IMG/VR virus record: IMGVR_UViG_3300044846_003573
Reading direction: 5' to 3' (one strand)
Length of the DNA stretch: 64,000 bases
From: a virus
Lineage: Duplodnaviria; Caudoviricetes
Of this stretch, positions 5,960-31,397 are shown one piece after another (position 1 is the stretch's first letter; every line of letters starts with the position of its first letter). The notes below the pieces were generated by a model. The model saw nothing but the letters and a program-made list of their open reading frames with translations. It ran no database searches and had not been told where the DNA came from. The position numbers were made by a program, and so were the translations under genes.

Positions 5960-6161
5960 TCATCCATCACACTATGGTGGTGAGGATAATCCATATGAAG
6001 CAATCAAGGTCATTGATGCTTGGGGTTTAGATAAAGATTTTTATTTGGGTAATGCGGTCAAATACCTATCACGAGCTGGTAAGAAAGACAACGTAGTTCA
6101 GGACTTGAAGAAAGCGATATGGTATATTGAAAAAAAGATAGAAAAATTACAGAATGATTGA
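5934..6161 (+). CDS. DUF3310-like phage protein
   Basis: VNHPSHY...FYLGNAVKYLSRAGKK...DLKKAIWY signature. Confidence 0.85.
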   Translation: MSEQKEMVNHPSHYGGEDNPYEAIKVIDAWGLDKDFYLGNAVKYLSRAGKKDNVVQDLKKAIWYIEKKIEKLQND

Positions 6162-9703: not shown

Positions 9704-9837
9704 TTTGACACTACGGAATATTCGCTGTAAGTTTGTAAAAGATTTAACACTTATAGGAAATGAAAGATACTCGGTAGTTAAATCAAAAAAAAAGTTCACA
9801 AACTACTTGACAGAAAGAAAAAAAAGTCGTAAGTTTG
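9704..9837 (+). promoter_or_regulatory. tandem Bacteroidota sigma70-type promoters upstream of the large ncRNA
   Basis: TTTG(9704-9707)-N20-TAAGTTTG(9728-9735) and TTG(9807)-N20-TAAGTTTG(9830-9837). These match the -33/-7 consensus TTTG-N19-21-TAnnTTTG. Confidence 0.75.
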
Positions 9838-9848
9838 TAAAACAAATC

Positions 9849-10757
9849 GGAAATGTCCGAGACGTTCTTTGAAACAAAAAGATTATCCATTCTCTGAGTA
9901 AGTCGTATTCCCGCCTTCGTGTGACGAATATGAGCACTGAAAAGAGATAAACGATAATGGGCCGTGTATGGTCCTTAAATAAACTACGAAAGTAGGATAA
10001 AGTGGTCTCCCCCGTGTTGAGGAGACTGCGGTTTGAAACCCCGTAAGGGGAATTGAACTCAAGTACACAAGTGGGGTATCACCAAACCTTTAGTACCGAG
10101 GATAACTTCGTAGGGAGAATGGTAGGGTGACCTGGCAAAGTAGATTGTCAGGTTGAGTTCGGAAGAACGATAAGAATAACCCATAGGAACTCTGTAAGAA
10201 ATGTGACCATCCAGTTACACAATTGCGGGTCCCAATATGATAGAGGACTTAAAACCGAAAGGTAAGATGGAGAACGAGTGGTGTCGCTACTATCCCTAAG
10301 GAAGACCTACCAAGGTCTCTTTATGAAGTAATCTTGAAATATGGAGGTGGGGACACTTCACGGAGTAGTTTAGTATTCTGTCGCTCAAAAGGAGACAGAG
10401 CTTATGTTGGACCACTACTCTGACACATCTACAACACAACCCTAAAATTATTACAAAATAACAAAGGAAAAGTGTCCATCAGGTTTGAGTGAAAGGTGAC
10501 TACATAGTAATGAGCCGTTCATTGCATACAGAGACCCCAAGTCAATGTGTATTGTTAAGAAAAACCTTTAGTCCCGCAAGGACGAACTGGGGTGGCAACC
10601 TCGGAAAGAGTTAAGTATTGATAGAGTAATTCAAACCTCAAGGAGTGGTACACCTAAAATACCGTCACTAAGAAATACTACCCAAAAGGTGGTGGATAAG
10701 AAGGGAAACAATAATCCTTCAAAAGTTTCTTAACATAAGCTGTAATCTCAGGCTTTT
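9849..10757 (+). ncRNA. large highly structured non-coding RNA (GOLLD/ROOL-class candidate)
   Basis: About 900 nt with no credible ORF and higher GC than its flanks. Many GNRA hairpins (ctacGAAAgtag, ccccGTAAgggg, accGAAAggt, gtccCGCAAGgac). Own promoters, boxA-like GTTCTTTGA and terminator. Confidence 0.7.
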
Positions 10758-20006: not shown

Positions 20007-20037
20007 TTGACATAAGAAGAAATTTATAGTACTTTTG
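20007..20037 (+). promoter_or_regulatory. Bacteroidota-type promoter of the tRNA operon
   Basis: TTGA at 20007-20010 and TACTTTTG at 20030-20037. Confidence 0.7.
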
Positions 20038-20065
20038 TAAAACAATTGATATTTAATTAGAAACA

Positions 20066-20179
20066 ATGAAACAGAACTCAACACATAACGTAAGTAATCT
20101 CCCGACAAACGTGGGCCAATCGTGGTTTACGATTAAGGGGCAGGATTGCCGTAAGTTCAGGGTTCTTAATAAGATGTAA
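20066..20179 (+). CDS. putative 37-aa leader peptide of the tRNA operon
   Basis: MKQNSTHNVSNLPTNVGQSWFTIKGQDCRKFRVLNKM*, lying between the promoter and the terminator. Confidence 0.55.
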   Translation: MKQNSTHNVSNLPTNVGQSWFTIKGQDCRKFRVLNKM

Positions 20180-20202
20180 TCGTATCATCAAATATATAAG
20201 GA

Positions 20203-20239
20203 AACCCTGGACTACAAAAAAGTTCAGGGTTTTTTTTTT
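20203..20239 (+). terminator. terminator/attenuator upstream of the tRNA cluster
   Basis: AACCCTGGACT-acaaaaa-AGTTCAGGGTT followed by a T-tract. The 3' arm sequence is duplicated at 20153-20164. Confidence 0.75.
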
Positions 20240-20256
20240 GGGATAAAAGCACATAA

Positions 20257-20310
20257 GGATGTGCGGCTGCTAGACGGCAGAGGGCTTGGGTTCGAATCCC
20301 AGATATTCCA
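20257..20310 (+). ncRNA. degenerate minimal tRNA-like element
   Basis: T-arm tgggTTCGAATccca, imperfect acceptor stem, no anticodon arm. Confidence 0.35.
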
Positions 20311-20338
20311 CAGTGGTTCTTTGACGTATTGGGAAAAT

Positions 20339-20410
20339 GGTGATGTAGCTCAGAGGGAGAGCATCTGATTGTTAATCAGAGGGTCGGGATTTCGAAATTC
20401 CCCATCACCG
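20339..20410 (+). tRNA. trnN: tRNA-Asn(GTT)
   Basis: Cloverleaf; anticodon arm tctga-ttGTTaa-tcaga. Confidence 0.92.
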
Positions 20411-20420
20411 CAAAAATAAT

Positions 20421-20495
20421 GACTTCGTAGCTCAGCTGGTTTAGAGCACCTCACTTTTAATGAGGGAGTCGTGGGTTCGAGTCCCACCGGGGTCA
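20421..20495 (+). tRNA. trnK: tRNA-Lys(TTT)
   Basis: cctca-ctTTTaa-tgagg; T-loop TTCGAGT. Confidence 0.95.
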
Positions 20496-20571
20496 CTTTT
20501 TTAATTAGGTGGTAAAACATACGTTCAGGTGAACTTTACTAATTTTTCTGATATTTATTAATAAATGAATT

Positions 20572-21030
20572 ATGAAATTATCAGGAGTAACAAAAGAACA
20601 AATGTTTGAAGTATTATCTTCATCAAAATCAATGAGAGAAGTTATTCTTTCATTTGGATTACAACCTAATGGTTCCGGGGGATATCGGAACATTAAACGA
20701 AAAATAATGGAACTTGGGTTAGAAATCCCAAAGTATAATTACTTTGGTGAGGGTTCTAAAAAAAGAAGACATAATGATGAAAATGTTTTTTGTGAGAATT
20801 CTCAGTTTCCAAGACAACATCTTAAAAAAAGAATTATTAATAATAAAATAATTGATTATATATGCGAAAAATGTAATAATAGTGGGCAATGGGAGGGAAA
20901 TGATTTATCATTACATTTAGACCATAAGAATGGTATAAATGACGATAATAGAATTGAAAATCTGAGATTTCTTTGTCCTAATTGTCATTCACAAACCCCG
21001 ACATATGCGGGTAAATCAAGGAAAAAATAA
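20572..21030 (+). CDS. HNH homing endonuclease
   Basis: CEKC...LSLHLDHKNGINDDNRIENLRFLCPNCHSQT. Free-standing between tRNA genes. Confidence 0.92.
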   Translation: MKLSGVTKEQMFEVLSSSKSMREVILSFGLQPNGSGGYRNIKRKIMELGLEIPKYNYFGEGSKKRRHNDENVFCENSQFPRQHLKKRIINNKIIDYICEKCNNSGQWEGNDLSLHLDHKNGINDDNRIENLRFLCPNCHSQTPTYAGKSRKK

Positions 21031-22053: not shown

Positions 22054-22875
22054 ATGAACAAGTGTTTGAATTGTGGAAAACCAGTGAAAAATAAATACTG
22101 CAATGTTTCTTGTCAAAATACTCATACTTGGACTGGAAAAAAACGGAAAAAAGAAAGTATTGAGAGACAAAAAGAATCTAATAAAAATCTATGGAAAGAA
22201 TTTGATGTTGAATGTTCGGTTTGTGGTAAGGAGTTTAAAATAAAAGAATTTAATGTTGAGTCCCCCAAAAAAGAAAAATACTATTGTGGTAGGTCTTGTG
22301 CAAATAAAAGAGTTTGGGATAGTCAACATAAAGAAAAATTAAGTAATATTTGTAAGAACTCTGATAAGGTAATTAGTGCTAATCGTGAAATTGGTAAAAA
22401 GAAAAAAGAAAAATCAATTAAAATTAAAAAAGGTGATTGTCTTTATTGTGGTGAGGCGTTGTATAAATCAAAAAAATATCATTCGGAATGTTGGTTGAAA
22501 TGTTCAGGGGGTATTAAAGAAGGTACAAGTCGAGGTAAATCAGGATGGTATAAGGGATATTGGTGTGATAGTAGTTATGAGTTGGCTTGGATTATCTATC
22601 AGATAGATAACGGACAAAAATTTGAAAGGAATAAAGAAGGGTTTGACTACACACACTCAAACAAAACTCGTAAATTTTATCCTGATTTTATATTACCTGA
22701 TAAAACTTATGTTGAAATTAAAAATTATAAGTCAGAATTAACTGATGATAAAATAAAACACTTCCCACATAAAATTGAGGTGATTTATAAAGAAGAAATG
22801 AAAGAAAAATATTTACCATACGTTACTTCAAAGTACGGTAAAAATTTTATATCATTATATCATAAAGAGGAGTAA
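22054..22875 (+). CDS. putative homing endonuclease (Cys zinc-binding repeats plus PD-(D/E)xK domain)
   Basis: CLNCG..YCNVSC and CSVCG..YCGRSC repeats; DSSYE..FYPDFILPDKTYVEIK. Confidence 0.8.
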   Translation: MNKCLNCGKPVKNKYCNVSCQNTHTWTGKKRKKESIERQKESNKNLWKEFDVECSVCGKEFKIKEFNVESPKKEKYYCGRSCANKRVWDSQHKEKLSNICKNSDKVISANREIGKKKKEKSIKIKKGDCLYCGEALYKSKKYHSECWLKCSGGIKEGTSRGKSGWYKGYWCDSSYELAWIIYQIDNGQKFERNKEGFDYTHSNKTRKFYPDFILPDKTYVEIKNYKSELTDDKIKHFPHKIEVIYKEEMKEKYLPYVTSKYGKNFISLYHKEE

Positions 22876-24340: not shown

Positions 24341-24418
24341 CAAAAAAATAAAAAAAGATTTGGTGGAATGAAAAACTTACCATATCTTTGTTGAAGTTCT
24401 TTGAGAGATTAAAAACAT

Positions 24419-31122: not shown

Positions 31123-31397
31123 ATATTAATATAATATTTATAAAGTATGAAGAAATATATTTGCAAATTAGTTCAAAAGATTACCTTTGGTAAGGTATGT
31201 CTTGGTTGGTGTGAATTATAACCGACAATCTTAAACCCCACCTTGAGTGGGGTTTTTTATTTACAAAAAAACAAATTACCTTATAGTTATTAATGAAACC
31301 TTGTTGATGAGGTCCACCTGTCCGATGAGACAGTTGAGTTGGAGAAATACCAACAAAGTGGGGTTCAATAAACATAAAAAATAAAATAAGGAAAAAA

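Follow-up and report, generated by a model that had tools for sequence, protein, structure and literature searches.

A probable leader-peptide attenuator between the promoter and the boxA of a phage tRNA array, with a recurrent layout in unrelated phage leaders

In the attenuators of amino-acid operons (trpL, hisL, pheL, thrL, leuL and the ilvGMEDA leader), a short ORF close to the promoter is followed by an intrinsic terminator that stands before the regulated genes, and exclusive 1:2, 2:3 and 3:4 pairings of the leader RNA together with control codons cognate to the product decide whether transcription continues. In T-box riboswitches and aminoacyl-tRNA synthetase attenuation, a choice between terminator and antiterminator likewise couples the expression of translation components to a specific tRNA; T-box leaders bind the tRNA directly and are untranslated. 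The principle of leader-peptide attenuation has been reviewed (PMC1183508), and an antibiotic-responsive leader before resistance genes provides an example of stalled-ribosome sensing (PMC6851288). A further way of modifying transcription is the boxA antitermination of rRNA operons, which involves NusB/NusE, NusA, NusG and SuhB (PMC4807359, PMC6614797). Why phages carry tRNA genes has been debated for fifty years, the proposals including codon supply and escape from tRNA-cleaving defences (PMC10264068, PMC11555353, PMC11464382). In the full-text literature, we found no description of tRNA-gene attenuation or of regulated phage tRNA expression. To our knowledge, the control of phage tRNA genes is hardly known.

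Here we describe a locus in a 64,000-nucleotide stretch of DNA (hereafter the window) from an uncultured phage, IMG/VR record IMGVR_UViG_3300044846_003573, whose DNA recurs in lake-water metagenomes from many studies. On the + strand, the parts follow one another in the order promoter, 37-codon ORF, terminator, tRNA-like insert, boxA, tRNA-Asn and tRNA-Lys (Table 1). A first-pass annotation made from the letters alone had proposed a leader-peptide attenuator with the order promoter, 37-codon ORF, strong terminator, boxA and tRNA genes; all of these parts are present at or near the places that it gave them, and the insert between the T-run and boxA was absent from its list. We propose that the locus is a ribosome-mediated transcription attenuator in the style of the trp operon, set between the promoter and the boxA of the main tRNA array, and we put the probability of this reading at roughly two in three.

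The locus shares with the attenuators of amino-acid operons the promoter-proximal short ORF, the exclusive 2:3 and 3:4 pairings with a predicted 1:2 pairing, the intrinsic terminator before the putatively regulated genes and, at the level of the whole class of leaders described below, the principle that control codons are cognate to the product. However, those attenuators regulate biosynthetic enzymes whereas the phage leader would regulate tRNAs, and their control codons form a tandem run whereas those of the phage leader are scattered, although a family that precedes tRNA-Asp comes near to a run. Unlike them, the leader is also phage-borne and has an rRNA-type boxA downstream. From T-box leaders it differs in having an ORF with an in-frame codon match. 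With stalled-ribosome leaders it shares the logic that ribosome delay in a short ORF would turn on downstream genes; antibiotic leaders respond to ribosome-bound drugs, some of them at the level of translation, whereas the phage leader probably responds to slow decoding and its output would be tRNA. The boxA is the same 17-mer word as in Bacteroidota genomes, with putative Nus binding, but unlike the boxA of rRNA operons it heads a tRNA array and lies downstream of a candidate regulated terminator. In an Rfam search at a permissive threshold, the leader reached the gathering threshold of no family: Thr_leader (RF00506) scored 20.4 bits against a threshold of 55, rnk_leader (RF01771) 26.2 against 50, and there was no T-box match. 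Among GenBank phage records, the leader region of the window matched at the tRNAs only, as did those of three other leader families, and no cultured phage with such a leader was found for these four.

Table 1. Positions of the parts of the candidate attenuator and of the adjoining tRNA genes in the window
Feature	Position	Strand	Remarks
Promoter, Bacteroidota sigma-A type	20008-20037	+	TTG(ACA) 20008-20013, TACTTTTG 20030-20037
Leader ORF, ATG, 37 codons + TAA	20066-20179	+	stop codon 20177-20179
Region 1	20073-20084	+	pairs with 20155-20166 (RNAfold); closes long imperfect hairpin 20073-20166
Region 2, antiterminator strand (predicted)	20153-20167	+	contains exact upstream copy of terminator 3' arm
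Region 3, terminator 5' arm	20200-20213	+	begins 20 nt past stop codon
Region 4, terminator 3' arm	20221-20234	+	merges into run of ten T, 20230-20239
tRNA-like insert, 71 nt	20240-20310	+	Rfam tRNA 27.4 bits (gathering score 29); not called by ARAGORN
boxA, Bacteroidota rRNA-operon type, GTTCTTTGACGTATTGG	20316-20332	+	same 17-mer in Bacteroidota genomes
tRNA-Asn(GTT)	20339-20411	+	first putatively regulated gene
tRNA-Lys(TTT)	20421-20496	+	second; remainder of 23-tRNA array downstream

The promoter fits the Bacteroidota TTG-N19-TAnnTTTG type, its spacer being 19 nt when counted from TTG. In 20 distinct relatives both boxes are conserved and the spacer is variable at 11 of 16 columns; transcription probably starts near 20043-20046. 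An A-rich stretch of 28 nt separates the -7 box from the start of the ORF, which thus comes soon after the promoter and ahead of the putatively regulated genes. The ORF has Asn codons at positions 4, 8, 11, 15 and 35 and Lys codons at positions 2, 24, 30 and 36. Its frame is intact in 19 of 19 relatives, with neither an indel nor a stop, and indels flank it closely on both sides.

Between the leader ORF and the tRNAs there is an intrinsic terminator, formed by regions 3 and 4 with a 7-nt loop and a stem of 14-16 bp (16 by RNAfold); a simple terminator scan, unlike RNAfold, did not list this hairpin. The first-pass annotation had noted that the 3' arm is duplicated exactly within the last codons of the ORF, and we confirm this: the 12-mer AAGTTCAGGGTT has two exact copies on the + strand, one within codons 30-33 of the ORF (20153-20164) and one in the 3' arm (20220-20231), and its sole other near match within the 64 kb carries one mismatch and lies on the opposite strand. 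The accompanying claim, that the upstream copy is able to pair with the terminator 5' arm, also held up, with a predicted duplex of -17.0 kcal/mol as compared to -18.8 kcal/mol for the terminator arms themselves (z -3.7 against shuffles). A strand complementary to the terminator 5' arm therefore lies near the end of the ORF. It stops 12 nt short of the last stop-codon nucleotide, and the stop codon is sited such that a terminating ribosome would mask region 2 and not the 5' arm.

We then asked how these pairings fare among relatives, using 19 further copies of the leader from IMG/VR contigs, of which 18 aligned sequences are distinct. The copies were found via the neighbouring gene, the terminator and a DNA pattern back-translated from the peptide; the last of these biases synonymous counts in codons 20-28, and dN/dS was therefore left unused. 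Across the 18 distinct relatives, all 234 of the 234 cells of the 13 antiterminator pairs (20154-20166 with 20200-20213) remain paired, and the four changes that occur among them are all wobble-neutral. The pairing of region 1 with region 2 is kept in 99.3% of cells of the same relatives, with one-sided changes only. We find no two-sided covariation in the leader family of the window (18 distinct sequences, 93% identity), because the sequences are so alike, and the family alone cannot prove a structure. Variants of one type, that of L022, are informative in a different way. These carry a G to A change in the 5' arm and an A to G change in the 3' arm with the upstream copy unchanged, so that the antiterminator is fully Watson-Crick and, at -22.3 kcal/mol, exceeds the terminator (-18.1 kcal/mol). 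The kept feature is complementarity to the 5' arm and not identity with the 3' arm. Most relatives have tRNA-Asn next after the leader, others tRNA-Trp or tRNA-Lys, and in this family no promoter lies between the T-run and boxA.

The 202-nt leader is predicted by RNAfold to fold at -53.7 kcal/mol (z -3.8 against shuffles), and for the full-length transcript without a ribosome the optimum consists of the terminator plus the leader hairpin. We repeated the folding with a 30-nt ribosome footprint made unavailable for pairing. When the transcript ends at 20214, regions 2 and 3 are predicted to pair whether the ribosome is absent or stalled, the stalls that give this pairing being those at Asn-4, Asn-8, Asn-11, Asn-15 and Lys-24. 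With the ribosome at the stop codon, the terminator is predicted to form. When the ribosome is absent, the hairpin 20073-20166 can, in these models, hold region 2. This hairpin is both predicted and conserved, yet equilibrium folding favours the pairing of region 2 with region 3 once region 3 exists, and so permits the antiterminator even in the absence of a ribosome.

The anatomy, the alternative pairings and their conservation, as well as the recurrence of the layout, the spacing and the codon match described below, are observed in the sequences and their predicted folds; that the ORF is translated, that ribosome and polymerase race one another, that the switch has the direction given here and that Nus factors load at boxA, we infer. 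RNA polymerase would start near 20044 and a ribosome would start on the 37-codon ORF. A ribosome that keeps pace would cover region 2, have only just left it, or be paused at the stop codon as the terminator arms emerge; with region 2 masked, regions 3 and 4 would form their hairpin and transcription would end in the T-run. A ribosome delayed in roughly codons 3-24 would leave region 2 free to pair with the emerging 5' arm, and the antiterminator, having formed first, would block the terminator and let the polymerase continue through boxA. There, host Nus factors would render the polymerase resistant to further stops; given that boxA lies past the terminator, it cannot help the polymerase to pass that terminator. 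Readthrough would yield tRNA-Asn, tRNA-Lys and the rest of the array. The delay would most likely be one of slow decoding, here at the four Asn codons at 4-15 and at Lys.

The main support for this mechanism comes from other phage contigs. At least about 26-35 leaders of unrelated sequence that precede boxA and tRNA genes in them share the layout of the window, with an ORF of 15-37 codons. A first scan of viral contigs gave at least about 16 mutually dissimilar leaders with a terminator just 5' of boxA, and a second gave at least 84 distinct leaders in at least 35 blastn families, the family clustering and the choice of ORF being heuristic. At the terminators 5' of boxA, a complement to the 5' arm is present in the upstream 120 nt far more frequently than at 79 other terminators (median z -2.95 as compared to -0.09; Mann-Whitney p 3e-10), and in 11 of 16 leader families the upstream complement reaches p<=0.05. 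Read by eye, two comparisons show three-way covariation. In L073 the 5' arm ends in CATCTT and the upstream strand is GAAGATGG, while L077 has CATCTC with GGAGATGG; between L050/L139 and L126 an A/T swap runs across the three strands. Among the matches listed, 26 families with a tRNA after boxA have an ATG ORF of 19-37 codons with a complementary strand at its 3' end. In most families the equivalent of region 2 has a further predicted partner in the first part of the ORF, which completes the classical 1:2, 2:3 and 3:4 arrangement.

The spacing of these parts is also constrained. From the stop codon to the terminator 5' arm there are 20-38 nt in the 26 families, and no family has fewer than 20 nt although shorter distances were permitted in the search; of the ordinary gene-end terminators on these contigs, 51% lie less than 20 nt from the stop codon (Fisher p 2e-6). 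A distance of at least 20 nt would be predicted if a ribosome at the stop codon has to sit over the strand immediately before it and stay clear of the 5' arm. In several other leader families (L050, L139, L126, L045, L077, L101 and L140) there is a second, complete promoter (TTG-N19-TAnnTTTG) between the T-run and boxA, and its TTG comes from the T-run itself. These would thus be tandem promoters, of which one is attenuated, and the control would be diluted in those families.

Some additional features were seen in passing. A short word, [AC]ATA, recurs in 24 of 29 unrelated leaders, where it begins between nucleotides 15 and 23 of the ORF and most often at nucleotide 19 (codon 7, commonly His), as compared to 1-3 of 29 for windows of equal size elsewhere in the ORFs; examples are 20084-20088 in the window and those in L042, L050, L138 and L336. 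As the word is not tied to a single frame, it may work through the RNA. In L018, a hairpin at 6079-6104 has the arm cores of the window's terminator (AACCCTGGACT / AGTTCAGGGTT) in an unrelated context with no leader ORF. Lastly, at 31148-31261 of the window lies a 24-codon ORF with two Cys pairs and, 11 nt past it, a terminator (31233-31255). A complement to the 5' arm of this terminator is again present upstream (z -3.7), and no boxA comes after it. Because of the missing boxA and the different spacing, this may be a small protein gene and not an attenuator.

What would such a leader sense? The first-pass annotation had argued that the peptide uses many different amino acids and would therefore respond to a general shortage of tRNA. 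This argument fails, because a 37-codon ORF with 17 kinds of amino acid is nothing unusual: among random 37-residue windows of the proteins of this phage, 20% reach that number. The proposal of an attenuator thus stands in its core, which is borne by the recurrent layout, the spacing of stop codon and terminator and the kept pairing; its reason for a general sensing does not hold, and its link to anticodon-nuclease defence is speculative. Across families, the codons of the leaders correspond instead to the first tRNA downstream. A codon for that tRNA is present in 26 of 26 leaders among the matches listed. When the tRNA labels are permuted among families, the match has p 4e-4 (2e-4 without the first two codons, and 5e-5 with the first two tRNAs counted), a significance that any shared ancestry of the families would inflate; after merging two related family pairs the value is 3e-4. 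When only the codons before the antiterminator strand are counted, p is 5e-5, with a score of 2.46 observed against 1.29 expected. The match is found in the frame of the ORF (p 2.5e-4) and not in the other two (0.17 and 0.93), which argues for a ribosome reading the ORF and against a T-box-like pairing. For instance, in the tRNA-Asp family of 13 members the peptides differ widely and all have an Asp/Glu cluster directly before the antiterminator strand. Other matches are nine Ser codons before tRNA-Ser, three His codons before tRNA-His and six Asn codons before tRNA-Cys/Asn. As codons of the first tRNA are over-represented across the class, we suggest a feedback from tRNA availability to tRNA synthesis. 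Separately, we considered an enrichment of Trp, His and Cys (Trp occurs in 20 of 28 leaders, some of them TnaC-like) and rejected it, given that TGG, CAT and TGY are about equally common in the three frames; a TnaC-like reading was likewise set aside, as Trp stands at varying distances from the stop codon among leaders.

The evidence on codons also bears on whether the same attenuator might sense only the overall speed of translation, such that delay at any codon opens the gate and the Asn/Lys content is incidental. Within the window there is something to recommend this: Asn and Lys make up 9 of 36 residues, an excess over expectation that is not significant alone (P 0.10), a stall at any of codons 4-24 frees region 2 in the masked folding, and among relatives an identical leader stands before tRNA-Asn, tRNA-Trp or tRNA-Lys. 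However, leader composition tracks the first downstream tRNA across 24-26 families and does so in frame only, and the four Asn codons at 4-15 of the window sit where a stall would free region 2. We consider it unlikely that speed is all that is sensed.

A more distant explanation is that promoter, ORF and terminator make up a small gene of their own, whose product is a 37-residue protein or a small RNA of about 195 nt, that the tRNAs are expressed from a constant leak of the terminator and that the repeat of the 12-mer has some other cause. The 3' half of the ORF indeed shows hardly any nucleotide variation (at 4 of 57 columns among relatives), and the G+C content of the leader is above that of the genome (42% vs 33%). 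But a small gene leaves unexplained why a complement of the 5' arm recurs in unrelated leaders, why the distance from stop codon to arm always falls within 20-38 nt, why the codons match the next tRNA and why the window's family lacks a promoter between the T-run and boxA, and we regard it as improbable. A second role in addition to attenuation is possible, given that trans activity is known in other bacteria for terminated attenuator RNAs as well as for leader peptides (PMC6614838, PMC7298713). That a tRNA (in the manner of a T-box) or a protein binds the leader RNA and chooses between terminator and antiterminator with no ribosome involved is very improbable, for while the leader is highly structured (z -3.8) and the [AC]ATA word is conserved in more than one frame, neither the T-box nor any other Rfam family reaches threshold, the codons match in the reading frame of the ORF and in no other, and all families have an intact ATG ORF with a fixed geometry of stop codon and terminator.

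The ribosome-mediated attenuator would feed into a boxA whose origin can be sought in the host phylum. The 17-mer is common in viral contigs, where, among the matches listed, it usually lies directly before or between tRNA genes. The bacterial genome contigs that carry it are mostly from Bacteroidota among the matches listed, and there it often follows the 3' end of a tRNA or lies on short contigs; the latter, by our reading, look like collapsed rRNA-operon contigs. Among 88 bacterial sites listed, one has a tRNA within 160 nt downstream, and none has a terminator with a T-run just upstream in the 70 nt that were read by eye. Given that the 17-mer is found mostly in Bacteroidota and often past tRNA 3' ends, it is most likely the rRNA-type boxA of the phylum, borrowed by phages for their tRNA genes. 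Other boxA-like words in the window (GTTCTTTGA, at 9864 and 24396) lie directly after promoters of the Bacteroidota type and head runs of non-coding RNA or tRNA-like sequence (9800-9880 and 24350-24410); at neither site does a leader ORF or a terminator separate the boxA-like word from its promoter. Because these other RNA operons of the window run from promoter to boxA without a leader, the unit of leader and terminator (20066-20239) has the appearance of an additional module for control.

The tRNA-like insert between the T-run and boxA has an acceptor stem, a D arm and a T arm, with an anticodon stem of 4 bp and an anticodon loop of 6 nt. It is missing in 19 of 19 relatives, in which the T-run abuts boxA or is separated from it by a 10-15 nt spacer, and no second copy was found in the window or in the fetched loci. 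Within the array, ORFs lie between tRNA blocks at 20572-21030 and 22054-22875, and the first of these has a motif of H-N-H type (…HLDHKNG…NLRFLCPNCH). Homing endonucleases between the tRNA blocks may be shuffling the array, which would fit the differing first tRNAs among relatives.

Two metatranscriptome contigs touch the locus. One, of 168 nt, covers 20082-20238 and continues with 11 letters of boxA in the form that the relatives have; it was not counted as bridging terminator and boxA because 11 letters are too few. A second, of 256 nt, joins the spacer, boxA, tRNA-Asn and tRNA-Lys. Such contigs are a weak hint at most, because they give neither ends, strand nor level and DNA carry-over is possible, and stretches that they leave uncovered carry no information.

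Taken more broadly, the locus may represent a widespread, modular "tRNA thermostat" of Bacteroidota phages, in which every tRNA block has a leader ORF composed of codons that its first tRNAs decode, a switchable terminator and a borrowed boxA, and each tRNA is made only when ribosomes wait for it, including after cleavage by host defences; for this wider idea we see the odds as evenly balanced. The classes of tRNA-Asn and tRNA-Lys, the first two of the array, are known targets of anticodon nucleases (PMC10264068, PMC11464382). If the attenuator reading is true, the output of phage tRNAs would be driven by demand, with decoding speed fed back on tRNA synthesis, and the codons of each leader would be a handle that reveals which tRNA shortage a phage meets in its host. 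Classical attenuation would thereby be extended to RNA genes, and phages would combine it with the rRNA antitermination signal of their host.
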